Origin: a virus
Taxonomy: Duplodnaviria > Caudoviricetes
Direction: 5' to 3' (one strand)
DNA length: 64,000 nt
IMG/VR virus record: IMGVR_UViG_2882837327_000001
Span: 21,907-85,906 of that record
Below, in pieces: positions 3,286 to 62,674 of the stretch (position 1 is its first letter; each line of letters begins with the position of its first letter). The position numbers and the translations under genes were made by a program. Under the pieces are notes generated by a model that was not told the DNA's origin, did no database searches, and worked only from the letters and a program-made list of their open reading frames with translations.

Positions 3286-3309
3286 GCACCAGCTTTAGGG
3301 TCACGACGC
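3286..3309 (-). promoter_or_regulatory. Late-promoter motif copy 1 (GTCGTGAC at 3300-3307; ATG of a 16-codon uORF 14 nt downstream)
   Basis: Minus strand GCGTCGTGAC CCTAAAGCTGGTGC ATG. Confidence 0.7.
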
Positions 3310-3339
3310 CCCGGGCGGGATGCCGCAGCGCCGCGGCCA

Positions 3340-5232
3340 TCACAGCTTCACCATGACGTTGAGGGCGATCGAGGGCTGGACGTTGGGGTGTGCCTCGTTC
3401 CCGCCGGCGGCGGCGATGGTGTGCCTGTGCGCTGGGGCCGCGCTGACCGTCGCCGTGTGGGCGTGCACCCCGCCGACAGAGACGGTGATGGAGTGGGTGT
3501 GCGCGCCGGCGTTGCCCAGGGTGATCTGATGGGCGTGCTTCCCGGCGGTGCTGGTGCGCGACCACTGATAGACATCGTAGTAGATGCCGCTGACCGGGCT
3601 ATAGTTCCAGTTGCGCGGCCCAATCAGGATGCCACCGCCGTGCATGTCATACATGCCCTCATGGCCATCGGTGTGCCAATGGTCGCCGTCCTGGCTGCAG
3701 GCTGCCGAGTGCACATGGGTGCCGGCGCTGCCGGTGGAAGCGTCGTGCGCATGCCCGCCGCCTTCCGAAACGGTGACGGTGTGGTCATGGGCGCCGGCGG
3801 CTCCTGTCTCGGCCCCGTGGTCGTGCTGCGGCATCTGGGCGTAGGTCAGCACATGGGTTTCGGTGCCGAAGGTGCTGCCCAGAGCGCGCGCGGTCAGGCC
3901 GGTGCCCTGCCCTGCCCCCACCACCGCGCGGCCGCGCATGTCGGGGAGGGTGATGCGCTTGCCGGCGGTGAAGTCGGCTGCCGCGCTGGCGCCGCGCCCG
4001 CCCACCACCGGGGCCTGGGCATCGGCCAGGTTGTTCCAGAGCAGAGTGAAGAGGTCGGCCGTATCCGCGTTGGCTCGGGCCGTGCCGCTGGAAGCGGCGT
4101 TGCCGATGGTGCCGCCGGTCAGCATCAGCCAGCCGGGATCCGCCGCGGCCTTCAGGGTTAGCTTGGTGTCGCCGGTGGTGTAGACCGCCTGCCCGGCCAG
4201 CAGGGCACGCACCCATTCGGTGGTGACGAGCTCGGTGTTGTTGGCCGAGGGGCTGGGGGTAACGGCGGTGCTGGTGCCGCGCAGCGCCACGCCTTCCAGC
4301 TCGGTCGGGCTGCCCGCCACGCTGCTGCCATCGGTCCAGATGAGGCGGCTGCGGCCGCTGGTGACGGCCACGCCCCCGCTCTGGCCGGCGGTTCGCACGG
4401 TGACGGTCTGGGTGCTGCCGTTCAGCAGGATCCAGTCGGCGGCTTCGCCCGGCAGGATGAGCGTGGTGGCGGCGCCAGGCGAGCCCGTCAGGGAGATGAT
4501 GGGCCCGGTCAGTGCGGTATCAGCCGGGGTGATCGTGCCGCCGGCGGACACGTCGATCTCGGCGCGCCCCCTGCCCCACTGCCGCGCGAAGGCGGTGGTG
4601 GCGAGCTGGGTGGTGGCGGTGCCGGCCGGCGCCGTAGGCGCGGTAGGGGTGCCGGTCAGAGAGAGATTCCGGGCCTCGGTGGTGGTCGGCAGCATGTCGG
4701 TGCCGTCGCACCAAACCTGCTGGGATTTTCCCTGAGCCAGCAGCACACCGCCACCGCCTGCCGCGCGGAAGGTGACGGTGAAGCCGCCCGTGGTGCGGTT
4801 GGTGACGGTCCAGCGCCCATTGGCAGCCGGCACGCTTACGGTTGCGTCGCCCGTGAGGTTGCCTGTCAGGATGATGGCGCTCTTGCCGGCCTCGATCGCC
4901 GTCAGCGCGGTGTTGCCTGCGGCGATATTCTTCGTGGTCTGCCCGCGGATCAGACCCTGCACCCATTCGGTGGTGGCCAGGCGGCGCGTGCTGTCGCCGT
5001 CCGCCGGCGTGACCGCCATGGCCGAGCCGGTGAAGTCCGGGCTGTTCAGCGGAGCCTTGGTCGGCAGCGCCTCTTCCAGCGTATCCACATGAGCCTTGAG
5101 GTAGGCGGTGCGGTTGGCCAGGTTCAGGAGCGGCGTGTTCGACGGGCCTTCCGGGCCGCCCAGCACCGGGGTGGTGGTTTCAAGCTGGAAGACGCCGGGC
5201 GCCCAGACGGCAGTTTCGGTCAGGTTGCTCAT
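3340..5232 (-). CDS. Tail fibre 2 with tail-collar domain and HxH metal-binding needle tip
   Basis: N-terminal anchor shared with fibre 1; collar motif YTTGDTKL...DPGWLMLTG; LPDMRGR; nine HxH motifs; ends NVQPSIALNVMVKL. Confidence 0.9.
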   Translation of the reverse strand: MSNLTETAVWAPGVFQLETTTPVLGGPEGPSNTPLLNLANRTAYLKAHVDTLEEALPTKAPLNSPDFTGSAMAVTPADGDSTRRLATTEWVQGLIRGQTTKNIAAGNTALTAIEAGKSAIILTGNLTGDATVSVPAANGRWTVTNRTTGGFTVTFRAAGGGGVLLAQGKSQQVWCDGTDMLPTTTEARNLSLTGTPTAPTAPAGTATTQLATTAFARQWGRGRAEIDVSAGGTITPADTALTGPIISLTGSPGAATTLILPGEAADWILLNGSTQTVTVRTAGQSGGVAVTSGRSRLIWTDGSSVAGSPTELEGVALRGTSTAVTPSPSANNTELVTTEWVRALLAGQAVYTTGDTKLTLKAAADPGWLMLTGGTIGNAASSGTARANADTADLFTLLWNNLADAQAPVVGGRGASAAADFTAGKRITLPDMRGRAVVGAGQGTGLTARALGSTFGTETHVLTYAQMPQHDHGAETGAAGAHDHTVTVSEGGGHAHDASTGSAGTHVHSAACSQDGDHWHTDGHEGMYDMHGGGILIGPRNWNYSPVSGIYYDVYQWSRTSTAGKHAHQITLGNAGAHTHSITVSVGGVHAHTATVSAAPAHRHTIAAAGGNEAHPNVQPSIALNVMVKL

Positions 5233-7776: not shown

Positions 7777-8232
7777 TCAGTTGTAGGTGATGGTCCAGGT
7801 GCCGCTGAAGCTGAGATCCGAGGCCTTGACCAAGGCGCCCGTGCGCACCCGCCGCGCGAACAGCGTGTCGTTGTTGCAGATCAGCCCGAACTCGATGATC
7901 GAGAGGCCATTGCCCTCGCCGGTGCCCAGCGTGAAGGCGAACTGCACGCTGTTCCACGCGGGATAGGTCACGCCCGACAGGGCCTTCTTGAAGGCGTTGG
8001 TCAGGCCGGAATTGCTGGCGTCAGCCGCGCCACTGCCTTCGCCGAAGCCGATTTGCGTGATCGAGCGGCCGACGACATCCCCGCCGATCAGCCGGGCCTG
8101 CTGCGTCCGCGCGCCGTTGACGATGATGTTGGGATGGTCATCCACCTCCACCAGCACGCCGCGGCGCCGCACTTCGAGGCGGAAATGGCCACGCGGGCCA
8201 GGAACGGGTTCGGAGAGGGCAAGGCTCGTCAT
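7777..8232 (-). CDS. Baseplate/fibre-attachment protein
   Basis: HPNIIVNGA...IGFGEG...GEGNGLSIIEFGL...LFARR pattern; lies between wedge and fibres. Confidence 0.75.
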   Translation of the reverse strand: MTSLALSEPVPGPRGHFRLEVRRRGVLVEVDDHPNIIVNGARTQQARLIGGDVVGRSITQIGFGEGSGAADASNSGLTNAFKKALSGVTYPAWNSVQFAFTLGTGEGNGLSIIEFGLICNNDTLFARRVRTGALVKASDLSFSGTWTITYN

Positions 8233-8254
8233 GCCGGCAGGGTGCCGTCACGAC
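8233..8254 (-). promoter_or_regulatory. Late-promoter motif copy 2 (8247-8254; ATG 8232 at 14 nt)
   Basis: TGTCGTGAC GGC A CCC T GCCGGC ATG. Confidence 0.8.
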
Positions 8255-8274
8255 ATCCGCAAGGTGGCCGCCGT

Positions 8275-11152: not shown

Positions 11153-12369
11153 GCTGCCTCGCTGGCGATGCTCGCCCCGTCCTGCACATCGGTAAGGGCG
11201 TCTTCGAGCTGGTTGTCGTTCAGCGGGTGCAGCACCGGATCCGAACTGGCGAGGGTGATGATGCCGGCGCGAGCGGCAGGGCTCAGCGAGATCCCGAGCG
11301 TCGAAGCCTCTGGGTTGGAGAGGCTTTCCCAGGCGCTGCTGGTGGTGAAGATGCTGGCCGGCCGGCCACCGCTGATGGAGGAACAGCCGGAGGCCCCGTA
11401 GAACCCGGCATAATCCCCATAGGCCAGGCGCGTGGAGCGGGCGCGAAGCAGCCAGCACAGCAGGTTGCTGAAGGCGCTGGCGGTGGCCATGACATCGTTC
11501 CTGATGGCCATGGGGAGGCTGACCACGGCGCCGATGGTGTGGAAGAGGTTCACCCCTGCCTGCGCCAGCATGGTCGGCACCGCCAGAACGGACGCCACCA
11601 GGTTGCGCACGCTGCGCACCACGCCCACCACCGCGGTGAACACCCGGTTCGCGAGGTTCAAGAAGTTGCGCACGGGCGCGATGAGGTTGGTCTGCACCCA
11701 TGCGCTGGCGCGTGTGATCGCGGATCGCACCGCGCTGATGGACTGCACCACGGAGCTGAAGAAGCCGCCCTCCTCGCCTGGCGTCTTCGTGGCGTCGCCG
11801 CCCTGCAGGAACTGGATCTGCCCGGCGTTCTGGTCCACCACGGTCAGGTTGAGCTGATACTGGATCAGCAGCGGCCGCGACTTCGAGCGGCGGAGCGTCA
11901 GCGTCATCGGCGCCACCTCCACCACGAAATCCGACAGGGCATCGGTGTAGATCAGCTTGACGGTGGAGGGGTCGCGGCCCTCCTGGACGGCCTGCTTGCG
12001 CAAGCTCGCCCAGCGGTTCCACACCTGGTCGCGAAGCGCCACCCACCGCTCTTCGCCGTTGCCGTCGCTGCCGCCGCGCCAGCCGGTGTGGCCTGCGATG
12101 TTGATGACGGGCAGCCCCTGACCGAAGCTATCCACGAAGGCGCCGCCGAGCGTGTGGTGCACGGTGGTGCGCATCTGGTCGGTGCGGGTCATATCCTCGG
12201 GCCGCAGGCCCAGGGTCACGCTGCTGACGATCGCGCCATTGTCTTCAAGGGTGAAGCCGATGGGGCGGTTCTTCTGCGAAGGCGGTGGGCCGGCATAGCC
12301 AAGCGCACCGGAGACCGCCCCGATGGCGCTGCTTACGCTATTGGCCGCATCTGAGAGGGATCCCGACAT
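11149..12369 (-). CDS. Baseplate/tail-tube initiator-type structural protein
   Basis: 406 aa; HHTLGGAFVDSFGQGLPVINIAGHTGW pattern; lies between spike and wedge. Confidence 0.7.
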   Translation of the reverse strand: MSGSLSDAANSVSSAIGAVSGALGYAGPPPSQKNRPIGFTLEDNGAIVSSVTLGLRPEDMTRTDQMRTTVHHTLGGAFVDSFGQGLPVINIAGHTGWRGGSDGNGEERWVALRDQVWNRWASLRKQAVQEGRDPSTVKLIYTDALSDFVVEVAPMTLTLRRSKSRPLLIQYQLNLTVVDQNAGQIQFLQGGDATKTPGEEGGFFSSVVQSISAVRSAITRASAWVQTNLIAPVRNFLNLANRVFTAVVGVVRSVRNLVASVLAVPTMLAQAGVNLFHTIGAVVSLPMAIRNDVMATASAFSNLLCWLLRARSTRLAYGDYAGFYGASGCSSISGGRPASIFTTSSAWESLSNPEASTLGISLSPAARAGIITLASSDPVLHPLNDNQLEDALTDVQDGASIASEAA

Positions 12370-12719
12370 ACCGCCAGGGTGGCGTCACGACGCGCCAGGG
12401 GGTTCACCCCAGCAGGGATCGGGCTCTGCCGCCGCCCGCGGCTGGCGGCTATGAAGGCTTCCAGGTCGCGGGCAGTCGCGTGGAAGGTGGCGAGCTCGAC
12501 ATCTGAGAGCCCCGTGGATTCCTGGTCCAGGCCTTCAAGCGCGCGGCGGAACCGTGCGGCGATGCCCTGGACGGTGGTGGCCGGGGTCTCCACGATCCGG
12601 CATTCCAGCTCTATCAGCTCGTCGGCACTCAGGTGCGGTGCCCCTTCGGCTTGCTCTTGGTCCATGGCAAGCAGCGCGAGAACCGGATCTGCAACGCAGT
12701 CGGCGGCGGTCAGGCTCAT
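12333..12719 (-). CDS. Hypothetical protein of the inserted moron (alternative start 12806)
   Basis: ADPVLALLA...LECRIVETPATTVQGIAARFR resembles small alphaproteobacterial phage proteins. Confidence 0.55.
   Translation of the reverse strand: MSLTAADCVADPVLALLAMDQEQAEGAPHLSADELIELECRIVETPATTVQGIAARFRRALEGLDQESTGLSDVELATFHATARDLEAFIAASRGRRQSPIPAGVNPLARRDATLAVCRDPSQMRPIA
12370..12393 (-). promoter_or_regulatory. Late-promoter motif copy 3 (12384-12391; ATG 12369 at 14 nt)
   Basis: GCGTCGTGAC GCC A CCC T GGCGGT ATG. Confidence 0.8.
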
Positions 12720-22055: not shown

Positions 22056-22893
22056 TGGTGGACTCCAGGGCGGTGATGACGGTCTCGATGCCCACGCCCG
22101 CGGCGGTCGCATCCGAGGAAGCCAGGCAGTTGAAGCTGGCCGTGGCGAGGTAGAGCGCGGCCGCATTCGTCTCGGGCAGCAGCTCGGTGTGGCTGACGGA
22201 AAGGGTCGGGTTCTGCAGGCCCTGCTGCTCGAAGATGTCGAGATTGGTCACGACGATGTGGCTCAGCAGCCGGCCAAGGGCGTTGCGCTCGTCGGGATTG
22301 AGGCTGACGGCGATGATGTTGACGGTGACGCGCGTGAGGTTGCCTTCAGTCTCGTCGCTGCCGATGCCTTCCAGGGGCTCCGTTTCCAGAAGTCCGGACA
22401 GGCCGAACTCGCTGGGCTGCTGGCTGTCCAGGTGGATCGTCACCATGGGCAGCTCGGTCTTCCCGGGATCCACGAAGGGGGCGCACAACACCTGCACGCG
22501 CCCGCTCTTTGGCCGGATCTTCCCTGCATCAACAGCCTGGGCCAGGCCCTTGCTGAAGCGGTCGGACAGCACCGCCAGCACGTCCACGGAGGTATCGCGG
22601 GCGGTGTAGGAGGGGATGGCGACGGCGGAGGGTGCGCGCGGCAGGATCTCGGCGCCTGCGGCATCGCGATAGAACACCGCGTAGTAGACCTCTGTGCCGT
22701 TCAGCAGACCCTGGATGTCCGTGAAGCCTTCCTCGCGCCCCCACTCGGCCACCACCACCGCGCCCGTGTCGTCGGGGCCGGTGATGGTGTCGGTGGTGCG
22801 CCGAAGCACGCGCCAGCTTGCCGCGCCCGAGGGCGGGGCCAGGATGACACGCACGGCGTTGCCGGCGGGATGGGCTTGCAGCAGGGCGAACAT
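22048..22893 (-). CDS. Tail terminator/neck protein with N-terminal Fn3-like domain
   Basis: Position before the sheath; DIQGLLNGTEVYYAVFY (Fn3-like); LPMVTIHLDS. Confidence 0.65.
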   Translation of the reverse strand: MFALLQAHPAGNAVRVILAPPSGAASWRVLRRTTDTITGPDDTGAVVVAEWGREEGFTDIQGLLNGTEVYYAVFYRDAAGAEILPRAPSAVAIPSYTARDTSVDVLAVLSDRFSKGLAQAVDAGKIRPKSGRVQVLCAPFVDPGKTELPMVTIHLDSQQPSEFGLSGLLETEPLEGIGSDETEGNLTRVTVNIIAVSLNPDERNALGRLLSHIVVTNLDIFEQQGLQNPTLSVSHTELLPETNAAALYLATASFNCLASSDATAAGVGIETVITALESTNG

Positions 22894-43183: not shown

Positions 43184-43291
43184 ACGAAGGATTATCCTTC
43201 ATTCATGGGGTCATTTCCTCGATATCCTCCAAAATCGTGGTTTGCAAGTGACTTCATATCCTCTATCCATCCTCCATGAGGGAAATGGAGG
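43184..43291. promoter_or_regulatory. Operator-like cluster B in the divergent HD/MarR intergenic region
   Basis: ACGAAGG-ATTAT-CCTTCAT (43184), ATGGGGT-CATTT-CCTCGAT (43205), CATAT-CCTCTAT (43255), further half-sites at 43271 and 43285. Confidence 0.7.
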
Positions 43292-43740
43292 TTCCGGTGG
43301 CTTCAGCCGCTTCAGCGCCGCTCTCGGCACTGACACACGCCTTCGTCGCCGCTTCTGCGGTGGATGAGGTTTTCACTTGCCGCCAGGTGGCGCTCTTGGG
43401 CCTGCTGGTGGAGACCGGTGGCCACTCGGTCGCGCACTATGCCGATGCGATGTCCGTCTCGAAGGCGGTGGTCACGCGGGCCAGCTACAAGCTGGTGGCC
43501 CTGGGCCTTGGCAACTGCAGCAAGGCGAACAGCGATCGGCGCCTGGTGGTGCTGACCGCCACCGGCGAAGGGCGCGCAATGTGGAAGCGCCTTGGTGGGC
43601 TTCTGCACCAGGCGGGCGGCCTCGCCATGGCCAGCGAGATGCTGGCCTTCGCCCGCAGCGGCGCGGGCTTCGCCTACCCGGCCGGCGCGCTTCAGAAGCT
43701 GGCACGGCTGGTGGAAACGAAGGGGGCGAGCTGGGAATGA
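43276..43740 (+). CDS. MarR-like winged-helix regulator
   Basis: RQVALLGLL...VAHYADAMSVSKAVVTRASYKLVALGL...SDRRLVVLTATGEG. Confidence 0.8.
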   Translation: MREMEVPVASAASAPLSALTHAFVAASAVDEVFTCRQVALLGLLVETGGHSVAHYADAMSVSKAVVTRASYKLVALGLGNCSKANSDRRLVVLTATGEGRAMWKRLGGLLHQAGGLAMASEMLAFARSGAGFAYPAGALQKLARLVETKGASWE

Positions 43741-44578: not shown

Positions 44579-44928
44579 ATCCGGATCATGTCGCCGTCCG
44601 GCGTCTCCACCCAATCCTGGTGGCGGGCCAGCCGGGCGGCATATTGGTAATGGGCCAGGCCTTCGGCCAGCACCTGGCCCGGTTCCAGCGGCCGCGGCAG
44701 CGTCGCCAGCGCCTCGGAATCCATGTAGTGCCGGAGCATCGGCAGGTTGGGCCCATACCCTGCTCCCAGCAGCAGCACCTTGATGGGCCACCACCACACC
44801 CCGAACCAGCGGTAGCGCAGCACCTGGCCCTGCAGGTCGCGGGCGATGTTGCCCAGCACCTCCGGCACACCATCGGCAGGAATCGGCGCCACGGTTTCGG
44901 GCGGGGTGTTCGTCAGCGCGTCGAGCAT
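44554..44928 (-). CDS. Hypothetical protein coupled to the DarB-like gene
   Basis: Start overlaps the DarB-like stop; 124 aa. Confidence 0.75.
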   Translation of the reverse strand: MLDALTNTPPETVAPIPADGVPEVLGNIARDLQGQVLRYRWFGVWWWPIKVLLLGAGYGPNLPMLRHYMDSEALATLPRPLEPGQVLAEGLAHYQYAARLARHQDWVETPDGDMIRIYDADIET

Positions 44929-50900: not shown

Positions 50901-51032
50901 CCGATGGCTTGCATGCGGGGCGACGAACACGCCCTTCTTGCTCAGGTAGCCCCCAACCATCACGGGGCTGTTGAGCAGGTCGCCAGCGGCGCCGCCCGGG
51001 ATGATGGCCTTCAGGAAGAGGATCACTGGCAT
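44928..51032 (-). CDS. 2034-aa DarB-like protein: N6-adenine methyltransferase plus SNF2 helicase
   Basis: NEYYTP, VLEPSAGAG, IGNPPF (MTase); ADVGVGKT, MDEAH, QRNGRGLRQGN (SF2). Confidence 0.9.
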   Translation of the reverse strand: MPVILFLKAIIPGGAAGDLLNSPVMVGGYLSKKGVFVAPHASHRRKRIATIETHRPVAQPDLFAPAPAALTQPPVQQQLTLDPPPMEAPAATEPPPAADPMLAEAGFILHLDAEKTQQVLDAALAARTLDWSASDSGRARVRVAIKRALGSVAPEISATTVHELAGDVTAMLARQEENATDAGPAEPAAAPARGAVHAEVAVLHPEVPPQAEIYRPAAWGMPAGVKAKARIKANKEAEAILAAKADDAMTDGDRDRLARYTGWGGQGVGTSPNEYYTPRDVAQAAWSLVRKLGFTGGAVLEPSAGAGVFQHTAPGDAQITAVELSTDSGRVNRILHGARDEVVTDSFEGFATYDPRRFDLVIGNPPFGARNAFRQQDVTKTDITRAEQYFLDTALDKAKDGGLVALVLPSGVLDASSARAFRERILAKGQVMAAFRLPNTAFADSQTEVTTDLLVMRKRPQALAGALGALNTQQQAALPHWDPDFVAGRYMTEGAGAAHVMGTLEPGWRAKAGIGDDITVSGSMDGVAEHIAAWQPPTDSLADNTPSMAAILAAAGDDAARVERAADRAPYPERHEGDTLVRDGIMYVLRGGRWHRAEQDIPAVVQDALQVGELLDGVLRGDAAGTALARVNLIEALDDFVGKHGAPGRNRELLDWTSQPQLPTGGADAGDHAQRTAAAAKQVAQLLGAVGSDGSYSDAVMGTSRAQHAPLAAVATELAGREGQFSIEQLAQAAGRADAEGVEEELFADPAFAMLPDQPGQWTSRDQYLSGALWPKYDAARAAAGDEGRVGPERARLQRQADELHQAIAPKDLGDVENIELGSPFVSHAAIEAWLNATHPNDGPWEILDDRGAIQVRGRYRGYGERPNDELLAAVLMRRGVRKDEAAQVDRLQAGFREWLLTDETWRAATEERYNRDFRGFVPRAYSEEPIPVPGLSPDFSVNAYHWAGVRRLLDDGRGICAADVGVGKTPRGLLLNAMLRATGRAKKPAIVVPKSLLANWVKAQQAMFPDARILAIGETLVTKKDGTVTSREDDEQTRRRKLAELKQNDFDFVFITLPTWNRINLDEARQKRWEDEDFYTQRREALDEAKEKKARKLKDRHEGKVAASKFVATGERNITLEDTGIDAVLMDEAHSMKNLASPEAGQFQELKFLGAPGTPSKQAVATEHKFRWIRENAANGGNVYMLTATPTKNSPLEIYSMIRHIAPEAWTSIGINNPDDFVDRFVERETDTILSANGQAVEATVVTGFRNMDEVRGIATRWIHRQTAADVGLKIPLPEMQQHMVEMDPAQAEAYAVLRPKLEQALAQRDAEGSDHPFSVISDMQKAATDMRLLHPGGEHAPSPKMRDIAENVARLAANGGQIVFSDYVDAHGMMRDALVAGGMDPKRIGIINAQVTPTSTSRQRVADAFNAGHLDVVIGNTATMGEGLNLQETTSDIHHADTPWEPASVIQRNGRGLRQGNTRETVGLHTYLTKGSFDGYRWQSMAAKGDWQTAFWGGGDRLDNMQRGSLGRLEMLIMASADPAAAREKFATQLEDAKARRAAGESIKAVQTWARYRDTMRQIEAMRLKRDRKNAYRYGAAPKVEEGETEKGMRLRAKRLKASLAANPAFLHGDVLDADPSSVAIDHRSGRVWRPGQEVEIQPGGKFNTMSKEPEAYVVQAVDDVGGTVSLLPAGYATLDGADRFARTVEISKLRDGVSDTKVDRDAAYERQAARDKAAAEAAEAARRAAQEAQASEERRAAASKAEGILNGTAHGHAADLAAMGDDWLQQHGEALHSRLIESQRSGRAGYATHAVMTDAGGKPYVVSAYQATKAPADHRVALPTTALRDKLLAQEEEHRLTSPLRNHYRPVPRTRSGQTEYAGAKRDNPAGTDILLNDSPSSIAIRNLWPKQAPELLAGVADRADRRAADAVRAAPSWRDAVRNAAGGLSARDSVMPGMNIGSMRPHTLAALHDAAERHGVLDRGVDTALPATRGDDSTLSAMRRVLSGAGGYYVSSVGKTLKDALRTAHPGHPETIRIAGSVLDDPRKAA

Positions 51033-51056
51033 CTGCCAATGGTCGCGTCACGACAC
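51033..51056 (-). promoter_or_regulatory. Late-promoter motif copy 11 (51047-51054; ATG 51032 at 14 nt)
   Basis: GTGTCGTGAC GCG A CCA T TGGCAG ATG. Confidence 0.8.
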
Positions 51057-51928: not shown

Positions 51929-53123
51929 AAGTCGCTGCTGGATCGGGCTTGGCGGTGGTGACAGCCACCTTGGCCAACTCGCCATTGAGCCAGGCCATGA
52001 ACGCGGGATCCACACCCGCCGGCTTCGCCTCCGGCACATAGGTCCACGATCCCCGACAATGCGGGTGCTGCACGCCGGCGGCCACCCACCACCGCTCATC
52101 GGGCGAGCGCTCCACCATCACCCCGCCATCACGGCGTTTCGAGCTCGCCCTACGGCGGGCGTTGGTCTTCCCGACCCACACGTCGCTGTTGCCGTTCCGC
52201 TTCGGGTCGCCGGGCGCGACCACGCGGAACGTCTTGCCGTTGATGGATTTGCAGAAATCGCAGGCGCCCCGGTAGGCCTCGACGCGCCGCACCTTCGCCC
52301 CGAGGGGCTGGCCCGCGATGAAGCCGGTGTTGTGCGCCTCGCCGATCTCCGTGACCGCGATGCGGCGCCAGTCCCTGTTGAGCTGGCCGAACTCATCGAA
52401 CAGGGCACTGCGCAGATACTCCGGCGTGCCGCCCTGCTCGCCCAGCACCTGCATCTGAAGCCGTTCCAGCAGCACCGCCTTGATGCGCTTGCGCGTGTCG
52501 TCGGCGAGATCCGAGATGAACATGGCGGCACGCGCGGCCGCGATGTCCAGGATAGCGGATTCCACTCCGGTCAGCACCTTCGGCGGCAGGTCGCGCCGGC
52601 GCATCGGAAGCGCTGAAGCGATCGCCGCGGCGCCGGGGTTCGGCCTGGCGCTGCGGTCCATGGCGGCCTTGATCTTGCCCAGCAGCGCGGCCCGCACTGC
52701 CATGAAGTCCGCCATGCTGGTGATGACGCCTTCGGGCAGGTATTCGGCCAGCAGCAGGTCAGCCAGGTCCATCCAATCGCCGATACCGAAGTGGGCTGGC
52801 CCCTTGGCTTCCAGGCGCGCCCGCACCACGTCCAGCCGGGCCTGGCGCATGTCTTCCCAATCGGCGGCCTTCCGCAGCGCGCCGAGCGGCTTTCCACCCA
52901 TATAGGCGATCAGCTCATCCTGGATGGCCTGCAGGATGCGCTGCATCCATGCCGTCACGTCCTCGATGTGCTGGGCGATGAAGGGATCATGGTGGCGCTC
53001 CCAGATGGATGCATCGCCATCGCCGCGAGGATCGACGGCCATCGCCTTGAACAGGCCCTCGATGCAGTCGTTGCAGTGCGCTTCCGGGACCGCGCCGATG
53101 TCCAGCAGCAGGGGGCCAGTCAC
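51927..53123 (-). CDS. Head morphogenesis protein (Mu gpF/SPP1 gp7-like)
   Basis: RDWRRIAVTE; CDFC; HPHCRGSW. Confidence 0.85.
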   Translation of the reverse strand: MTGPLLLDIGAVPEAHCNDCIEGLFKAMAVDPRGDGDASIWERHHDPFIAQHIEDVTAWMQRILQAIQDELIAYMGGKPLGALRKAADWEDMRQARLDVVRARLEAKGPAHFGIGDWMDLADLLLAEYLPEGVITSMADFMAVRAALLGKIKAAMDRSARPNPGAAAIASALPMRRRDLPPKVLTGVESAILDIAAARAAMFISDLADDTRKRIKAVLLERLQMQVLGEQGGTPEYLRSALFDEFGQLNRDWRRIAVTEIGEAHNTGFIAGQPLGAKVRRVEAYRGACDFCKSINGKTFRVVAPGDPKRNGNSDVWVGKTNARRRASSKRRDGGVMVERSPDERWWVAAGVQHPHCRGSWTYVPEAKPAGVDPAFMAWLNGELAKVAVTTAKPDPAAT

Positions 53124-55030
53124 GGACGGCCCCAGCTCTTCAGGAAGAAGAGGGCCCGCCCTGGCCAGCCGCCTTTTTGGAAGCGAGGAGATCCTGCAGG
53201 TACTTGGGCAGCTTGGCCGTTGGTGTCCGAACGGGCGGCCGGCAGTCCTGGCTGTCCATCTTTTCCAGCATTTCCGCCGTCAGCTTGCTTTTCACGAGTT
53301 TGGTTGTCGCGTTCATTTTTGGGGCTCTCCGCAATTAGGGTGGGGCCGCTCCCGTCGCGGTTCTGATTATCGCGGAAGCTCCACGCATCCGCAATATCCT
53401 TCACCTGGTCGAACGCGGCTTCGTTCTGGGTGTTGCCCAAGATGACCGTGGGCGGGACATAGCGGCCAGTCGGGCCGAGGAAGCGTTTCACCGCACGCTT
53501 CGCTGCTTCAGCGCGCGGCAGGTGCATGTAATGAGCCTCCACGCGGTATCCGCCATCCTTGAATGCCTGGGCCAGCGCGACGGCCTTCTTGGGGGTCTTC
53601 ATGGTCGCGTCGTGGACAATGTTCAGCCCGAGATCCTGAGCCACCTGCGTGATCTGGTCGAACAGGTCGCCGGATTCCTCGTGGACCTGATAGGCATTCC
53701 ACCCCTCGTATTCGGGCAGCATGTGCTTGATCTCGTCGGCGTCCAGCACGATGGCCTTGGTCGGATCGTAGACTTTCCCGCTGAACCAGGATTTGCCTGA
53801 GCCACCGCGACCGCCCAGGATGGTGAAAGTCGGCTTCTCGCCAGCCGCAGGCGTGGCGGCAGCGATCTTCTCGGGTGAAAGGAAGTGCGCCACGATCTTA
53901 CCGTGGAGCTCCTTACGCTCCGGCGTGTAATCGCCGTCCTTGTAGTGCTGGGTCTTCGTCTCAGTGACCCCGGCCAGTTTGTTGTCGATGGCCGCCATCT
54001 TGCTGGCGGTATCAGGCGGGAAATTGGCCAGCACCGAATGCACCGTCGCATCGTCCGGCGCGTCGAACTTCGCGAAGTGCCCGGCAGCCGAGAAGCCCGC
54101 ACCACCCTTCGGATCGGCGCCAGCAGAGCCGGGCCGGTGGTCAGGGTAGTCCAGCTTGTCAGGATCGAGGGGCTTACCCTTCCCGTCCTTCTTCCCATCA
54201 TCGCCGCCGTCATTGCCGCCACCGCCACCGCCGCCGCCAGCGGCCGGCTTCGGCTTATCCAGCGCGTCATGAGTGACCTGGTGTGTCTGCCCAGCGGCAT
54301 CACGCAGGGTTACGCCATCCTTCCCGGAGGAGACGATCTTACCTTCGCCTCGCACGTCGCCGTGCTGAAAGCCCACGCTGTCGCCGATCTTATGGTGCGG
54401 CGCATTGGTGAAGTCTTCCAGGTCGGTCTGCCGAGGGTCATGGATCACCCCCTCATCCTGCTGGCCAGGCTTGCGTGGCTGTTTCGCGTCCGGCGCGCTG
54501 CGCACCCATCGCTTGGTCTGGTGCCCTGCCTTGTCGGTGGTGTCGCGCAGCGCCAGCCCGGGCCTGTTGGCAATGCCGGCCTTCAGGAACATCACCTGCT
54601 TCCCGCCACTCAGCGCCTTGGCCAGGCGATCGAGGCCGTCCATCAGCGGGTCAGCGATTGGGTGTGCAGGATTCGCCGCCGGCGCAGCGGCGTTGCCTCC
54701 CGCATCACCCGCGAGAAACCTGCGCCTGCCCTTATCGTCCTGCACGATGGAACCCTCTTGCCCCTTGTCGATAACGTCGAAATTCATCGCCACCCGGCTC
54801 TTGTGGCCAAGCATCGCGTTCCAGCGCAGCGGATGGCGCTTTCCATCAGCAGCCTCGCCGGTGAAGCCATCACGGCCATGCGCCAGCACGCGCACAGCCA
54901 TCGGCCCGCGCTCGGGGTGGTGCGCGTAAACTTCGTCGCCCACCTCCACGGTGCTGGCGCGCGGGTCGGGCTTCACGGTGGCGGCAGGTTTCCGCGGCTG
55001 CGCGCCAGCCTGGCGTGCGCCTGCCATCAC
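53120..55030 (-). CDS. Multidomain protein: two SH3/Tudor-like modules plus zeta-toxin-like P-loop kinase
   Basis: GGRGGSGKS; LDADEIK; IVHDATM; GGYRVEAHYMH; AVKRFLGPTGRYVP. Confidence 0.85.
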   Translation of the reverse strand: MMAGARQAGAQPRKPAATVKPDPRASTVEVGDEVYAHHPERGPMAVRVLAHGRDGFTGEAADGKRHPLRWNAMLGHKSRVAMNFDVIDKGQEGSIVQDDKGRRRFLAGDAGGNAAAPAANPAHPIADPLMDGLDRLAKALSGGKQVMFLKAGIANRPGLALRDTTDKAGHQTKRWVRSAPDAKQPRKPGQQDEGVIHDPRQTDLEDFTNAPHHKIGDSVGFQHGDVRGEGKIVSSGKDGVTLRDAAGQTHQVTHDALDKPKPAAGGGGGGGGNDGGDDGKKDGKGKPLDPDKLDYPDHRPGSAGADPKGGAGFSAAGHFAKFDAPDDATVHSVLANFPPDTASKMAAIDNKLAGVTETKTQHYKDGDYTPERKELHGKIVAHFLSPEKIAAATPAAGEKPTFTILGGRGGSGKSWFSGKVYDPTKAIVLDADEIKHMLPEYEGWNAYQVHEESGDLFDQITQVAQDLGLNIVHDATMKTPKKAVALAQAFKDGGYRVEAHYMHLPRAEAAKRAVKRFLGPTGRYVPPTVILGNTQNEAAFDQVKDIADAWSFRDNQNRDGSGPTLIAESPKNERDNQTREKQADGGNAGKDGQPGLPAARSDTNGQAAQVPAGSPRFQKGGWPGRALFFLKSWGRP

Positions 55031-56787
55031 TCGCCCCCGATCTGGTAGATCAGCGGGATGGACTTGCCGAAGTCACGGCCTTCGCCTGGCTGGCCGAAGT
55101 CGCCACCGCCAGGCGGCGGAGCATCCATGCTAGCCGGCTTGGCATCCATGCTATCCGCCCCCACCACCGCATCATCGTCCAGGCCGGGACTGCCGTTGTG
55201 ACCAGGGCCAGGGCCTTCGGCATCCGGGTCGCCGAAATCGCCTCCGCCACCGCCGAAATCGTCACCCTGGCCGGGCTGTTGTTGCAGCGTTCCCTGGTAG
55301 ACGGTCATCAGGGCGGGGTTCAGCGGTGCGGCGCCCAGCTTCGGATCCGGGTGCACGCCTAGGCCCTGCTCGGCGCGCAATTCATCGACGGTCATGGTCA
55401 GCTTCTTGCCTTCCCACTCCCGCGCCTGGTCGCGCTCATCGAGGCCAATCCAGCGGAAGCAGTATTTGTCGCTGAAGTCGGTGACGACGAAATCGGTCAG
55501 TGTCTGCTCGAAGTAGCTCAGCAGCGGGCGCAGGCCCTTGTCCTTCGAGGCGGCCAGCTTCTCGGTGGTGTCGCTGCCGGAGAGCGAGGAGCTGCCGTTG
55601 GTGAAGCTCTCGAAATTGATCTCGTCTGGCGCCATGCCATAGATCGCGCAGATGAGGCTGGTCAGGAAGGTCATCCACTTCGAGAAATACATCTCGTTGA
55701 ACTCGACGCCGAACCGCTCGAAGCTGGCCTTGCCGTCCGGATCCTTGTTGACCATCACGGGCAGGCCGAAGGCGTTTTTCGCCCCGGTGGTCATCTGCTT
55801 CCAGTAGCGCTTGAAGGCCGCCAGCTCGGCGTCACCGTAGTCGCCCACCAGGTGGAGCATGCCGCGCGGGATGCTGTTCTGCTCGAAGCCCGCGATGTTC
55901 AGCGTCATCGCGTTCAGGAAGCCGGTGACGGTCTGCACCAGCACCTCGGTCTCGCTGAAGCCGTAGCCGCCATACCGGACATCGGCGCAAGCGTTGCGCG
56001 GTTCGTAAATCAGCGCGTCGGGCTGGTAGGCGGTGGTGACGCGCCCGTTGACCACCTGGACCGCCACCGCGTCCGGATACTCGGGGTGCCCGTCATCGGT
56101 GCAGAGGCGGATGGTGCTGCCGTCGAGCGCATAGAGGCCGTCGATGCCGAGGCTCCGATCGCGCTTCATCTCCGTCTCGATCGCGGCCGCGTCCATGGCC
56201 AGGGTGTCGAAGACGAGCTTGCCCATGAAGGTGGGGAAGTTGTCCCGCTTCAGCGCCTTGCGCTTCCGAGGGCTCCACTCGAATCCGCAATGCTGGAAGA
56301 AGCGCGTCAGGCGCGCGATCGAGGCCTCTTCCTCCGGCGCCAGCTCGTGCTTCGGGTCCACATGACGGATCGCGAAGCCCAGGCCGCCATCCTCGGAAGG
56401 GCTGCAGAAGCGCGCGACCTGGCGCTGGCGCGTCCACACCACGGCGGAGAGGACGGGGGTGCGACGCACCATGTCGCGCATGGTCTCGGGGGAAAGCAGG
56501 CCCGGCCGGTCGTAGTAGCCGCCCTGCAACGCCAGTTGGAGGTCATCGCGATCAAGCGACTGCATCCCGCGCCGCTCGGGCATGTGGACGCGGGTGCCCG
56601 GGAACGGGATGACGTTCTGCGCCTTCAGCAAGTCGAGGGATTCGCGGATCTGGTCCACCACTTCAGGTGAGAACAGGTCGCCGGCGGCCGGCATGCTGGC
56701 CCGGGTTAGCTGCGTCTCCGCATCCCGAACCTCCATGGCGGGGGCGCGGGGATCGGTCGCGACACTGCGGGCATCATCGGAAGACAT
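55027..56787 (-). CDS. Portal protein
   Basis: LYALDGSTIR; YGGYGFSETE; NSIPRGML; MTVDELRAEQG. Confidence 0.92.
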   Translation of the reverse strand: MSSDDARSVATDPRAPAMEVRDAETQLTRASMPAAGDLFSPEVVDQIRESLDLLKAQNVIPFPGTRVHMPERRGMQSLDRDDLQLALQGGYYDRPGLLSPETMRDMVRRTPVLSAVVWTRQRQVARFCSPSEDGGLGFAIRHVDPKHELAPEEEASIARLTRFFQHCGFEWSPRKRKALKRDNFPTFMGKLVFDTLAMDAAAIETEMKRDRSLGIDGLYALDGSTIRLCTDDGHPEYPDAVAVQVVNGRVTTAYQPDALIYEPRNACADVRYGGYGFSETEVLVQTVTGFLNAMTLNIAGFEQNSIPRGMLHLVGDYGDAELAAFKRYWKQMTTGAKNAFGLPVMVNKDPDGKASFERFGVEFNEMYFSKWMTFLTSLICAIYGMAPDEINFESFTNGSSSLSGSDTTEKLAASKDKGLRPLLSYFEQTLTDFVVTDFSDKYCFRWIGLDERDQAREWEGKKLTMTVDELRAEQGLGVHPDPKLGAAPLNPALMTVYQGTLQQQPGQGDDFGGGGGDFGDPDAEGPGPGHNGSPGLDDDAVVGADSMDAKPASMDAPPPGGGDFGQPGEGRDFGKSIPLIYQIGGE

Positions 56788-56811
56788 GACCCCAGCGTCG
56801 CGTCACGACGC
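56788..56811 (-). promoter_or_regulatory. Late-promoter motif copy 12 (56802-56809; ATG 56787 at 14 nt); supplies the TerL stop
   Basis: GCGTCGTGAC GCG A CGC T GGGGTC ATG. Confidence 0.8.
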
Positions 56812-58848
56812 CGGGATGTATGCGAAGCAGGCGGGCGCATTCGCCTGCGTTCTGAACTCGCGCGCCGTGCAGTGCCCATCCCGGAACGCCTCGCACGCAC
56901 CGCAGGTGTTCGGCGCCGCCTCCTCGATCATGGCCTGGATGCTGGGCGGCAAGCCGGGCGTGTCCAGCAAGCTGGTCTGCTCGGGCGGCTTAAGCGGATC
57001 CGGCGCGCCATTCTCCAGGAGCATGAAGGTGGTGCCGCCGCCGTTGCGGATCCAGGCGATGTCGCACAGCATGTTGGCGAAGCTGAAGTGCGGGTCGAGC
57101 CCCACCTTCTGCACCTTGCCCACGGGCTTCCGGGTCTTTTCGTCCTGTTCCATCACCAGCGCCGTCTTGGTGAAGTGGTCGAACACCCAATCCTGGCAGA
57201 TAGGGATGCGGTGCTCGCCCTTGGTGTCCTGGACCATCTGTTCCAGCGCCGCTGGATCCGGGAACAGGCAGCCGCCGTCACGGAGGCGGAACAGGGCCAT
57301 CTGCATGGCCTTGTACTGCTGGATGGTGACGGTCCACCGGCTGCGGTCGCTCTCGGCCGTCCGGCGATCGCTCTTCGTGAGATCGTCACCCCAGACCAGC
57401 ATGTCGTCGCGAAGGTTCGCATAGCCGGCGAGATAGACGCGGCGCGGGAACCTGGCGGCCAGCTTTCGGGCCTCGTTGGCATTCGGGAGCTGTTCGATAA
57501 CGCAGAGCTGGACGCCATACTGGTCCATGAGCTCGGCGGTGCGCCCGAAGGCCTCGTTGCCGAACACCGCCTCCACATGCAGCACCCCCTGGCGGCCATC
57601 GGGCAGCCGGCCCTTGATGATGTGGACGTTGAAGCCGCCCATCTGGTCCACGCCCATGAAGGTGCCGCGTCCAGACTTCTGCCAGGTCAGCCCCATCTCC
57701 ATGCCCTTTCGGGCGGCCTCACGCAGGTGGGCCAGGGTGACGGGGAGCTGATCGGCGTCGATGTAGGGCCGCGCCAGCGTGCGGTTGTAGAAGCTCTTCT
57801 TCTGGTCGCCCGTCTTCGCCCGGTTGAAGTCCGTCACCAGGTCGCGGGCGGTCATCTTCGGGCTGATGGTGCGCGGAAGGAGGAAGCTGCGCACGCCGGT
57901 CAGCGCCAGGTTGCCGGGCTGCTGCGGAATGTAGCGCCCGATTTGGGCATCTCGGATCCAAGCCCGGCAGCGCGGGCAGACATAGACGAACTCGTTGTGG
58001 GGGGCGTGCGCCACCTGGCCGGTGTTGTAGGCGGTGGATTTGCCCGGGAAGATCCCGCCCGGGTCGGAAAGGTCGCTTTCCTCGCCGCATTCCAGGCAGC
58101 GGGTGTGCCACACCTCCTGGTTGCCTTGCAGATACCAGTAGTTGATGTCCAGCTCCGGCTGGTTGGCGGTGCTGAGCATGAGGGTGAACCGGAGATCGCT
58201 GTCGCCCATGCGGGCGATCACCTTGTCGATGTGGGCCAGGGCCATCTCCTGCACCTCATCGAGGCTCACGATGTCCATGGGCCGGCTCTCGGTGGTCACA
58301 CGGCCACTGGTCCAGAGGAACATCAGAAGCGATTCACCGAATTGGCGGGTCAGAACGTTGCCCTCGCCGATCTTCTTCTTGCTGCCGTCCACCTCCTGGC
58401 GGGTGATCAGCCGCTCATAGAGCATCGGCGCCGAGCGAAGGATGGCCATAAAGCGCTGCTCGGATTTGAAGCCGGCGGTGGACTGGTCGGGCATGAACAT
58501 GCCGATGTTCACCGGGCTGAACTTGAGGCTCATGTAGAGCTGGGCCAGCACCTCCCACACCGTCAGGCCAAGCTGCGTCGCCTTCTGGATCACCAGCTTC
58601 TGCTTGAAGGCCTCGGCGCGGGTGGTGGGGATGGCCTCATAGATCGGGCGCAGCGCGGGCCGATCGGCCAGGCTGAACGGGCGCCGATCGACCTTCAGGC
58701 CCTTCGAGCCAAGATCCTCCACCCACTGGATGAAGGTCATCTCCTCGGGGATGGATCCCGTCTGCGCGTAGCCCTTCTCGGCGGCGAACAGGGCCAGCCG
58801 CCGCGAGAACTGCTGAATAGCCTGGTCGGCAATGCTGGTGCGGGCCAT
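56803..58848 (-). CDS. terL: Terminase large subunit (GpA-like)
   Basis: QKATQLGLT (Walker A variant), VSLDEVQ (Walker B), LSTA, GVDQMG (RNase H fold), DPHFSFA. Confidence 0.92.
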   Translation of the reverse strand: MARTSIADQAIQQFSRRLALFAAEKGYAQTGSIPEEMTFIQWVEDLGSKGLKVDRRPFSLADRPALRPIYEAIPTTRAEAFKQKLVIQKATQLGLTVWEVLAQLYMSLKFSPVNIGMFMPDQSTAGFKSEQRFMAILRSAPMLYERLITRQEVDGSKKKIGEGNVLTRQFGESLLMFLWTSGRVTTESRPMDIVSLDEVQEMALAHIDKVIARMGDSDLRFTLMLSTANQPELDINYWYLQGNQEVWHTRCLECGEESDLSDPGGIFPGKSTAYNTGQVAHAPHNEFVYVCPRCRAWIRDAQIGRYIPQQPGNLALTGVRSFLLPRTISPKMTARDLVTDFNRAKTGDQKKSFYNRTLARPYIDADQLPVTLAHLREAARKGMEMGLTWQKSGRGTFMGVDQMGGFNVHIIKGRLPDGRQGVLHVEAVFGNEAFGRTAELMDQYGVQLCVIEQLPNANEARKLAARFPRRVYLAGYANLRDDMLVWGDDLTKSDRRTAESDRSRWTVTIQQYKAMQMALFRLRDGGCLFPDPAALEQMVQDTKGEHRIPICQDWVFDHFTKTALVMEQDEKTRKPVGKVQKVGLDPHFSFANMLCDIAWIRNGGGTTFMLLENGAPDPLKPPEQTSLLDTPGLPPSIQAMIEEAAPNTCGACEAFRDGHCTAREFRTQANAPACFAYIPAS

Positions 58849-60209: not shown

Positions 60210-60482
60210 TCAAGCCTTCACGGGCGCGGCGCGCCGAATGACGATCCTGGCAGGGCAGGCAGCGGTGGGGGTCGGGTTGACCTCGCAACGAAACGGAAAC
60301 AGCTTCGGCCCGGCCTTCAGCCCGCAGCCGCAGATCGCGCTGACGGCGCCGGTGGCGGCAGCACCGCAGTGGTGGCAGACCACCTCCCTGCCCCGCCCCA
60401 TGATGCGGCCGCCGCAAAACCGGCAGGCATGGTCGAGAGGGGCCCAGCCCCCCGCGCCCTCAGAAGAAGGCAAGCTGTTCAC
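60210..60482 (-). CDS. Small Cys-rich Zn-binding protein
   Basis: CRFC, CHHC, CGC motifs. Confidence 0.7.
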   Translation of the reverse strand: MNSLPSSEGAGGWAPLDHACRFCGGRIMGRGREVVCHHCGAAATGAVSAICGCGLKAGPKLFPFRCEVNPTPTAACPARIVIRRAAPVKA

Positions 60483-61104
60483 CCTTCAGCGCGTTGGCGA
60501 AAGTCGGGATCACCGTGTTTCCGAAGCCCGCCCGCCGCCACTGGCGCCGATAGCGGGGGCGCCGGCTGGCGCCAGCAAAGCCCGGCCCGAGCTCGGGCAG
60601 CGCGTCGTCGGGGATCGGGCCCAGCCGGTGAAATCCGATGACGGTAGCGGCGCCGGCGGTCTCTTTGGCCGCAATCAACATGGCCTCCACCCGCGACGAG
60701 ACCGATCCATAGCGGCGGTGCAGCGGCTGGGTGGAGGAAATGACAATGGAAATGGGGTGGAGGGCTGCCGCCAGCCCGGGCACCTTCCCCCGTGCGTCGC
60801 GCCCCCGCGCTACCTCGCGCTGCCGGTTGTAGCAGGAGATGCAGTAGAGGCCGCGGATGAGGCGCCGGTCGCCCGCCGTGCATCGCACGCACAGCGGTTC
60901 GAGCTCCCGGGCGCGGGCAGCAACTGCAGCTTTCTCGGGGTCTACGCCGGCGTGACGCGCGCCAATTGGGCACCCGATGCAGGCGTTCCGCGTCTCGCCT
61001 AGCTGAGGTGGGCGCTTCTCGACGGATAGCCAGAGGCGGGCACAGCCTGCCGTCGAGAGACGCGACCTGGTGCGCTCACATTGAAAGAATTCGAGCCCGA
61101 GCAT
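60460..61104 (-). CDS. Multi-CxxC Zn-binding protein
   Basis: CIGC, CVRC, CISC; ends EQLAFF. Confidence 0.75.
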   Translation of the reverse strand: MLGLEFFQCERTRSRLSTAGCARLWLSVEKRPPQLGETRNACIGCPIGARHAGVDPEKAAVAARARELEPLCVRCTAGDRRLIRGLYCISCYNRQREVARGRDARGKVPGLAAALHPISIVISSTQPLHRRYGSVSSRVEAMLIAAKETAGAATVIGFHRLGPIPDDALPELGPGFAGASRRPRYRRQWRRAGFGNTVIPTFANALKGEQLAFF

Positions 61105-61232: not shown

Positions 61233-61790
61233 GCGAACGGCGGTCGAAGTGGTCTGGACGTTACTCGTACTGCCCAGGCTGCTCCCTAGAAAGAAGTTAA
61301 CGGTATTGTTGTAGCCACCGATGGTCGCGCCCAGGATCACGTTGACCAGTGCCACCATGATGGAATCCGCACTCAGCATGATCGCCGTCACGCTGCCGGT
61401 GGCGGAGAGGATGAACACCACGATGGTGCTGATGGCCACGGTATCTCGCATGCGCGTGCTGCCACCCGCACGGACCACCTCCACGTCACGCGACCGGGCA
61501 TCAGCGGTGTTCTGAGCCTCGATCTCCAAGGTGGCGTTGCGCTGCTTCGCCAGCTCCACCTCATTCTCGGCCAGCACCCGCTGAAGCTGAACCCGAAGCT
61601 CCGTCACCGCGCCGGGATTGGTGTCCAGGAAGCGCTGCGCCTCGGCCGGGTCGCTGCTGCCGACAACCTGCTGCACCACGCCGGTCAGGCTCTCGGCCAC
61701 CGCGGCGCCGCGCTCGCCGGCTATCAGCTTGCCGATCCACTCGGCGGCCGAGGGCAGCACTCCCATAAGGAGCGGAAGGAGAGCGAACAT
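61212..61790 (-). CDS. Holin-like membrane protein
   Basis: Follows the endolysin; TM segments and FFLGSSLGS tail typical of 3TM holins. Confidence 0.75.
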   Translation of the reverse strand: MFALLPLLMGVLPSAAEWIGKLIAGERGAAVAESLTGVVQQVVGSSDPAEAQRFLDTNPGAVTELRVQLQRVLAENEVELAKQRNATLEIEAQNTADARSRDVEVVRAGGSTRMRDTVAISTIVVFILSATGSVTAIMLSADSIMVALVNVILGATIGGYNNTVNFFLGSSLGSTSNVQTTSTAVRIRPNPS

Positions 61791-62650
61791 CAGGAGGCCT
61801 CCCCATTAAGCGCGCGCCAGGTGGCTGGCCCGACCACGCCATCCGGGCGCAGGCCCTTGGACTGCTGGAACCGGACCACGGCGGCTTCGGTGGCGCGCCC
61901 GAAGATCCCGTCGATCTGAAGGTGGGACACGCCCAGCTTCGTCTGCACCAGGCGCACCAGCTCGCCCCGGTCGCCCACCTTCAGCATGTCGAAGACGGTG
62001 GTGGCTGCCTGCACGCTGGGCACGGTGTGTTCCGCAGCTTCGCTGATGACGAACCGTTCGTAGGCGCTTTCCAGCTTCTCGTCGTAGCGGTTCACCGCGT
62101 AGCTGGGCCCGTTGTAAGCACGGGCGAAGGCCGCCCAATCCTTGTCGCGGAGCGCGGTGGTCAGCCGATTGGCCTTCACGAATGAGCAGAAGGCCAGCAG
62201 GTGCTCACGCTCGCCCTTCAGCATCGAGGCGACAAAGACCTCCACGGAGGTGAAGCCGGCGGCCTGGAAGTTGCTGCCCAGGATCTGGAACAGACCCCAG
62301 CTCGCGGCGGACAGCGCGGCGCGGCGATCGAGCTCCACGGCGCGCAGCAGCCGGGTGTATTCGGCGGCGCCACCCAGGTAGAGGCCGGTGGTCCAGCTCG
62401 CGCGGCTGATGTCCGGATGTGAGACATTGAAGCGTCCACCGGTCAGCCGGCCGAAGATGTGGGCCTCGAACAGGATCCGGGGGCGCTTGCTGCCATCGGT
62501 CAGGAAGCCGCCGGCGCCGCCGGTCTCAACGGTCAGCACGGCCCGGATCGTCGCCAGGTCCGTCCCGAGGGTGGCAGCGGCCGCTTCGATGTCGGCCCGC
62601 GCCATGGGCGCTGCCGCGCCGGAGAGGGTGAGGAGGGTGCTGTCTGACAT
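61790..62650 (-). CDS. Endolysin: N-acetylmuramidase (DUF3380-like) plus C-terminal peptidoglycan-binding domain
   Basis: VETGG; ILFEAH; SASWGLFQILGSN; FARAYNGP; GDRGELV...DGIFGRAT...FQ...DGVVGPATW. Confidence 0.93.
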   Translation of the reverse strand: MSDSTLLTLSGAAAPMARADIEAAAATLGTDLATIRAVLTVETGGAGGFLTDGSKRPRILFEAHIFGRLTGGRFNVSHPDISRASWTTGLYLGGAAEYTRLLRAVELDRRAALSAASWGLFQILGSNFQAAGFTSVEVFVASMLKGEREHLLAFCSFVKANRLTTALRDKDWAAFARAYNGPSYAVNRYDEKLESAYERFVISEAAEHTVPSVQAATTVFDMLKVGDRGELVRLVQTKLGVSHLQIDGIFGRATEAAVVRFQQSKGLRPDGVVGPATWRALNGEAS

Positions 62651-62674
62651 GGCGGCAGGGTGTCGTCACGACAG
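62651..62674 (-). promoter_or_regulatory. Late-promoter motif copy 13 (62665-62672; ATG 62650 at 14 nt)
   Basis: CTGTCGTGAC GAC A CCC T GCCGCC ATG. Confidence 0.8.

Follow-up and report, generated by a model that had tools for sequence, protein, structure and literature searches.

A compact box-plus-minimal-10 element as the probable late promoter of a prophage and its ~90-kb myovirus relatives, with many first genes predicted to be leaderless

Why should the same eight base pairs stand in front of gene after gene of a prophage, always on one strand and often at one fixed distance from the start codon? The question is raised by a stretch of 64,000 nucleotides (nt) of viral DNA (Duplodnaviria; Caudoviricetes; IMG/VR record IMGVR_UViG_2882837327_000001, positions 21,907 to 85,906; G000:C2:21907-85906), here called the window, which belongs to a prophage in a bacterial genome. 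The element consists of the 8-bp box GTCGTGAC (core TCGTGA), 2 nt and a minimal -10 hexamer, N-A-N-N-N-T, with nothing conserved upstream. We consider it probable that a clade of ~90-kb myoviruses (PHB04 / Phabquatrovirus-like), to which the prophage belongs, uses this element as its late promoter, and that box and minimal -10 would be read by the host RNA polymerase holoenzyme together with a phage-encoded factor. The argument is built from the motif itself, its strand, its position, its conservation and its geometry relative to start codons.

An exact count of the 8-mer finds 14 copies of GTCGTGAC in the window, every one on the minus strand, against a mean of 1.66 and a maximum of 5 in 100 dinucleotide-preserving shuffles, none of which reached 14. 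Inspection of context places 13 of the 14 directly upstream of minus-strand open reading frames (ORFs); these are the 13 sites listed in a preliminary description made from the sequence alone, which had missed the further copy at 22247-22254 (minus strand). That copy lies within a gene, lacks the A/T continuation and is probably a chance occurrence. The continuation N3-A-N3-T, reported for eleven copies, is indeed present in 11 of the 13 pregenic copies, as 11 matches of the extended pattern with zero mismatches; at the other two, at 32790 and 3300, the A is present and the T is missing. Across the whole 5.28-Mb genome, which has a guanine-plus-cytosine (GC) content of 69%, the extended pattern matches 14 times, 11 of them inside the window, and outside the window GTCGTGAC has a density of about one copy per 75 kb per strand. 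The functions encoded behind the boxes of the window are all late-type.

The distance to the start codon is equally regular. An ATG lies exactly 14 nt past the box at 62650, 56787, 51032, 38468, 32775, 12369, 8232 and 3285, and 17 nt past it at 22893, so that all nine start codons described beforehand are found in place. As the ATG at 3285 opens 16 codons only, seven real genes, not eight, have the 14-nt spacing. The statement that no Shine-Dalgarno (SD) sequence intervenes also holds: these leaderless-type promoters have none, and the gap between -10 and ATG is only 6-8 nt, upstream of the predicted +1. Four promoters of the window instead have predicted leaders of ~10 nt (ATG 31829), ~19 nt (30497), ~30 nt (25794) and ~106 nt (29378), and an SD-like sequence precedes the ATGs at 30497, 25794 and 29378 and is absent for 31829.

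The same element is found in related phages. The structural module of the prophage is syntenic with that of Bordetella phage PHB04 (Phabquatrovirus, 94 kb), whose portal protein is 55% identical; also related are Aeromonas ST4, Pseudomonas Dolphis, Escherichia coli ECML-606-1 and Yersinia fHe-Yen8-01. In PHB04, 11 exact matches to GTCGTGAC lie on the late strand only, before holin, portal, protease, helicase and structural genes; they show the same A/T continuation, an annotated start codon lies exactly 14 nt downstream in several cases, and the early regions are without the box. ECML-606-1, Dolphis, ST4 and fHe-Yen8-01 all carry the element, some with variant boxes. Among 91 portal-anchored loci with ~50% portal identity and GC contents of 44-71%, the box is present in most and nearly always on the sense strand. 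That the box persists together with the A and T over such divergence argues for the earlier reading of the 8-mer as the putative site of a factor beside a minimal -10.

Pooling of 157 unique box copies, almost all on the gene (sense) strand, gives the following sequence logo. Counted from the box, A stands at +4 in 85% of copies and T at +8 in 84%, G is enriched in the 5 nt after the T, and the 30 nt upstream of the box carry close to zero information, and therefore no conserved -35. There is no extended -10 either, as TG is lacking at -15/-14 and the TG of the box sits at -18/-17. The hexamer drifts in AT-richer relatives to CACAAT, TAGAAT and TATAAT. An ATG follows the box at 14, 15 or 16 nt in 56, 17 and 9 copies, respectively; measured from the T, an ATG lies 7-9 nt downstream in 82 copies, and a GTG or TTG in 7. 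In 80 copies (51%), an ATG 14-17 nt past the box opens an ORF of at least 40 codons, compared with 3.9% of random positions. With an offset of 14, the A of the ATG falls exactly 7 nt past T(-7), the spacing at which sigma-70 promoters usually place their +1. The conserved spacing of 14-16 nt is thus consistent with the proposal that +1 is the A of the ATG.

Is the element a signal for transcription or for translation? About 30 of 50 unique portal orthologues have (G/T/A)TCGTGA(C/T/A)-N3-A-N3-T with an ATG at 14-16 nt, and most of the others retain the box with leaders of 10-26 nt, often with an SD. The same promoter that is followed directly by a start codon in the prophage is thus followed in some relatives by an SD-bearing leader, and in others by a transfer RNA (tRNA) or transfer-messenger RNA (tmRNA) gene. 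In a 44%-GC relative (L141, L066 and L069), the unit behind GTCGTGAC-AA-TATAAT is a tRNA-Asn/Ala/Thr cluster, and +1 is predicted to fall two nt ahead of the tRNA; in L081 a tmRNA-like gene follows the box, eight nt downstream of the predicted +1. Since the box precedes tRNA and tmRNA-like genes, it is a transcription signal rather than a translation signal. Its register to the -10 is fixed whether the unit downstream is an RNA gene or an ORF with or without a leader, and the element therefore behaves, as far as comparison of sequences can tell, as a promoter. Units of RNA genes (tRNA clusters and tmRNA-like genes) were seen in the relatives at L141 8072-8397, L081 8320-8662 and L101 45118-46432, 2 of them directly behind a box; the tmRNA-like gene of PHB04 lies in the early region and has no box.

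In the mechanism that we infer, host RNA polymerase with its primary sigma factor would read A(-11) and T(-7), and the missing -35 contact would be replaced by a phage-encoded factor that occupies the box, at about -22 to -15. Transcription would begin 7 nt past the T. At about half of the promoters, +1 would then be the A of the ATG, so that the first gene of the unit would be leaderless and translated as such. Seven genes of the prophage are predicted to be leaderless: those for the endolysin and the portal, for the two giant polyvalent proteins, for the virion protein that heads the baseplate operon and for two small proteins. All but the last two had been singled out before, and comparison with relatives is consistent with that assignment. 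The remaining promoters would give leaders of 10 to ~106 nt, mostly with an SD present.

Several observations weigh against this mechanism. The +1 is placed from geometry alone, here and in all box-carrying phages. The hexamer is weak, with -12 usually C or G rather than T, and in this high-GC prophage it agrees with the sigma-70 consensus at the A and the T only. The host, moreover, relies mainly on SD sequences, TANNNT standing 6-7 nt before the ATG in ~55 of ~5200 candidate starts (~1%), so efficient leaderless translation of major structural genes would not be guaranteed.

Which phage protein could read the box? The likeliest factor would be a pair of adjacent minus-strand genes. Protein A (60460-61104), a candidate specificity factor of 214 amino acids, has eight conserved cysteines (C9, C21, C42 and C45, and C72, C75, C88 and C91), a YNRxRE motif and no named family; protein B (60210-60482), its candidate partner, is a zinc ribbon of 90 amino acids whose gene overlaps the end of that for A. 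When the ORFs of the prophage were compared by tblastn with the five complete phages, the shared core was structural except for these two, A being present in 5 of 5 and B in 3 of 5. B lies immediately downstream of A in 12 of 15 A-carrying loci, even at 30-44% identity. In two loci with a different backbone (L135 and L136), A comes after RusA and before baseplate and terminase genes, at the early/late boundary, the position where late regulators are classically found; three GTCGTGAC boxes follow A there, with the hexamer GGCACnAT or AACACCAT, and two of them continue with N6-ATG. In the surroundings of A genes, 28 matches of the relaxed motif are on the strand of A and 9 on the other. One further genome among the 400 sampled in the class carries an A homologue (G347, C1:5275826-5285074), and 3 of its 6 motif matches, on both strands, lie within 10 kb of it. 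In phages without A (P1 and Thermus Lalka27b), the late box is not present. Co-variation of the box with variants of A was considered and rejected: loci without GTCGTGAC have minor variants of it only (GGCGTGAC, CTCGTGAC and GTCGTGAT) and no alternative motif.

From these observations, A and B may be the likeliest specificity factor of the late promoter, an assignment for which we see the arguments as nearly balanced; the link between A and the box is an association, not proof. The family of A comprises 874 cluster representatives in a library of 1.84 billion proteins. The AlphaFold2 model of A has a mean predicted local distance difference test score of 73, rising to ~85-90 over residues 1-155. 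Neither A nor B has a Pfam or PHROG family, the model of A gave no significant match by Foldseek against PDB, in a VIA-wide search or in ESM Atlas, and profile searches against PDB sequences returned generic zinc-ribbon or LIM-like noise only. Against a role for the pair, it must be said that both are without a known fold or family and that nothing ties either to DNA or RNA polymerase. The examined stretches of five A-carrying loci (L132, L133, L139, L142 and L146) have no box, several of these boxless loci being short or fragmentary. Finally, A lies downstream of the endolysin late promoter, and neither a promoter of its own nor a consensus sigma-70 promoter upstream of it was found. It can nevertheless be put forward, somewhat more tentatively still, that A and B could represent a new family of zinc-binding transcription factors that steers host polymerase to GTCGTGAC-N2-NANNNT in mostly uncultured phages of beta- and gamma-proteobacteria, with the first genes of about half of the late operons, portal included, leaderless in hosts where this is rare. 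If so, an orphan family of 874 cluster representatives would gain its first function.

A different division of labour is conceivable, although we regard it as unlikely: the whole 16-bp element might be read by a very divergent phage sigma-like factor, comparable to T4 gp55 with gp33 and possibly consisting of A assisted by B, with no part for host primary sigma and an activator. The lack of a -35, the compact and continuous form of the element, the resemblance of a conserved pair of small proteins to a two-part factor and the retention of the box from Yersinia to Bordetella hosts, which points to a phage-borne reader, would all suit such a factor. However, Sigma70_r2 gave ten matches in the host genome, none of them on the prophage contig C2, and no match in the five relatives, a search that a divergent, gp55-like sigma would escape; the model of A matches no sigma fold, and the A/T positions, with their drift to TATAAT in AT-rich relatives, fit a host primary sigma. 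As for a polymerase of the phage's own, neither the genome nor any of four relatives gave a match to the T7-type domain (RNA_pol, PF00940), control genomes likewise giving no positive, and such an enzyme is neither among the Pfam matches nor in the annotation of PHB04.

Far less probable is that the box is an operator, bound by a repressor or another DNA-binding protein of immunity, replication or packaging and overlapping ordinary weak promoters. The imperfect palindrome GTC-GT-GAC has the size of a half-operator, but the box is confined to the front of late, structural, lysis and virion-cargo genes and to the strand on which they lie, it is absent from the early regions of PHB04, and no -35 is at hand to make the promoters active unaided. 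Least probable of all is an RNA-level element, a processing site or non-SD translation enhancer in transcripts from upstream promoters: the fixed 14-nt distance to ATG in many copies, the very short intergenic gaps and the occasional use of the box TGA as the stop of the upstream gene would agree with one, but the distance to the start codon ranges from 14 to ~120 nt while box and A/T persist, RNA genes also follow the element, the conserved A and T are placed where a -10 needs them, and the box is not complementary to the anti-SD.

Taken individually, the promoters of the window, all on the minus strand, can be followed from the right-hand end in the direction of transcription. The first (62648-62674, with GTCGTGAC at 62665-62672 followed by the A/T box) would drive the endolysin gene (61790-62650; muramidase and PG_binding_1 domains), whose ATG at 62650 is at the predicted +1. 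The portal gene (55027-56787), with its ATG at 56787 predicted to be leaderless, is preceded by the promoter at 56785-56811, whose box TGA also ends the large terminase gene (56803-58848); this layout of box and ATG is retained in most portal orthologues. Two promoters precede the giant genes, which are likewise predicted to be leaderless: one at 51030-51056 for a DarB-like methylase-helicase of 2034 amino acids (44928-51032, ATG 51032), and one at 38466-38492 for an LPD3/SNF2 polyvalent protein of 1788 amino acids (33102-38468, ATG 38468), with a GC-rich hairpin abutting it upstream. At 32773-32799, the promoter of a 96-amino-acid protein (32485-32775) has its ATG (32775) at 14 nt, and the A is present with no T at +8.

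The leadered promoters follow. That at 31827-31863 serves a 428-amino-acid protein starting at 31829, whose predicted leader of ~10 nt lacks an SD; that at 30495-30540 serves a 161-amino-acid protein from 30497, with GGAG 6 nt ahead of the ATG in a leader of ~19 nt. The prohead protease gene, from 29378, would have a leader of ~106 nt with the strong SD GAGGGGG (promoter and leader, 29376-29508), and an 80-amino-acid protein from 25794 a leader of ~30 nt (25792-25848), again with a GC-rich hairpin abutting the promoter upstream. A 281-amino-acid protein heading the sheath/tube operon starts at 22893, 17 nt past its motif (22891-22920). Leaderless starts are predicted once more for a 406-amino-acid virion protein heading the baseplate operon (12367-12393, ATG 12369) and for a 151-amino-acid protein followed by tail-fibre genes (8230-8256, ATG 8232). 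The last promoter (3236-3309) precedes the mini-ORF of 16 codons (3235-3285), which begins at the predicted +1 at 3285; a 92-codon ORF starts at 3238, where its ATG and the TGA of the mini-ORF share bases as ATGA, and this arrangement suggests that a leaderless mini-ORF may be translationally coupled to the 92-codon ORF.

Two features of the surroundings of the boxes deserve mention. The TGA inside GTCGTGAC is the stop codon of the upstream gene at 56803-56805 (large terminase), 29500-29502 and 31855-31857, the upstream genes other than the terminase gene encoding proteins of 185 and 131 amino acids; promoter and gene end therefore overlap. GC-rich hairpins on the minus strand, upstream of the motifs, end right at the box at 38491-38515, 32798-32830 and 25847-25870, with energies of -23 to -30 kcal/mol against -21 at the 5th percentile of controls. 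As they have no T-run, they may mark unit boundaries or stabilize RNA 3' ends. A second, proposed motif, operator-like and 19 bp long, was not recovered by exact k-mer counting or by a search for repeats.

Some properties of the prophage and its host can be added. The part of contig C2 that lies upstream of the window has small genes of early type, a DNA methylase gene and genes of the integrase family, and the prophage is therefore at least ~85 kb in size and seems to extend to the contig end. The start of the contig (L148, G000:C2:1-20000) contains a recombinase zinc-ribbon fragment, a tyrosine integrase, a DUF1643 protein and an N6/N4 DNA methylase that is common to all five relatives. Prophage relatives in the host's own family were sought through the portal, which gave no match in 150 sampled genomes. 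Directly downstream of the portal gene, at 53120-55030, lies the gene for a protein of 636 amino acids with a Zeta_toxin/AAA_33 kinase-like domain, with gp034 as its homologue in PHB04. Inside the late region is a block without late motif that holds a MarR-like gene, on the plus strand, and genes for a DUF5131 protein and an HD-domain nucleotidase (43276-43740, plus strand; 41216-43161, minus strand). The host genome (G000) shows a small TANNNT peak 6-7 nt ahead of ATG starts (~1% of genes) and therefore has a few leaderless genes of its own.

How does this element relate to late promoters already described? A full-text literature search for GTCGTGAC returned primer noise only, and the promoters of this clade are not discussed in the phage-group literature searched. 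Phage P1, to which the preliminary description had likened the element, has late promoters of which eleven are activated by Lpa (PMC10695390). The likeness in architecture stands: both have about a dozen dispersed late promoters per ~90-kb genome, a -10 hexamer with no -35 and, immediately ahead of the -10, a short inverted repeat that is imperfect, and the two boxes have GTGAC in common. DarB/Ulx-type anti-restriction genes, expressed late, are also found in both types of phage. Box and spacing, however, differ, as the annotated P1 record has the 9-bp AAGTGACTT 4 nt from the hexamer (AAGTGACTT-N4-TAnnAT), whereas here the 8-bp GTCGTGAC stands 2 nt from NANNNT. The P1 hexamer is of the type TANNNT; here A(-11) and T(-7) are kept in 85% and 84%, but -12 is mostly C or G, not T. 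Late promoters of the P1 type also depend on host SspA. P1 leaders are ~20-40 nt long, whereas here the ATG is at the predicted +1 in about half of the cases. Lpa (PF25716, phrog_1704) has no match in the genome of the window even at E<=10. A as a relative of Lpa was rejected at an hhalign probability of 0.2%, as was kinship with P1 through the portals, which are unrelated.

T4 late promoters consist of a -10-like element alone (TATAAATA), read through the small phage proteins gp55 and gp33 with the sliding clamp. Promoters with only a -10-like element and small phage proteins as readers would be shared features, but in T4 there is no upstream box and the messages have leaders; homology to gp55 or gp33 was not detected, though no search aimed at it was made. 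The lambda cI mRNA made from PRM is leaderless, its 5'-terminal AUG being used in a gamma-proteobacterial host, but this concerns a single regulatory gene, whereas the present element would make leaderless initiation routine for major late genes.

The closest functional precedent, by analogy, is Thermus phage Lalka27a. It has 16 late promoters without a -35, and small-RNA sequencing located the starts of half of them; leaderless transcripts form the majority, and a phage factor was inferred by the authors (bioRxiv 10.64898/2026.04.20.719267). The arrangement proposed for the prophage resembles that of Lalka27a and phiYS40 in its many late promoters with a special -10, no -35 and a proposed phage factor, and in mostly leaderless transcripts with no need for antitermination; the portal, too, is 37% identical to that of the prophage. 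In contrast, their motif is TAGGGT with a C at -25, and the Thermus host commonly uses leaderless mRNAs; in Lalka27b, A is absent and the 8-mer occurs only once.

Should the interpretation given here be correct, this would be a second case, after the Thermus phages, of routine leaderless late mRNAs, here in SD-dominated proteobacteria, and one would have to ask by what means the phage gets these messages translated. A compact and portable promoter of ~16 bp together with its factor would also be useful for phage annotation and engineering, as the pair appears, from its distribution, to be functional in a range of hosts that includes E. coli, Pseudomonas, Bordetella and Aeromonas, which differ widely. 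Set beside the known systems, the element would combine activator-type late promoters without a -35, as in P1, with leaderless late messages, as in the Thermus phages.

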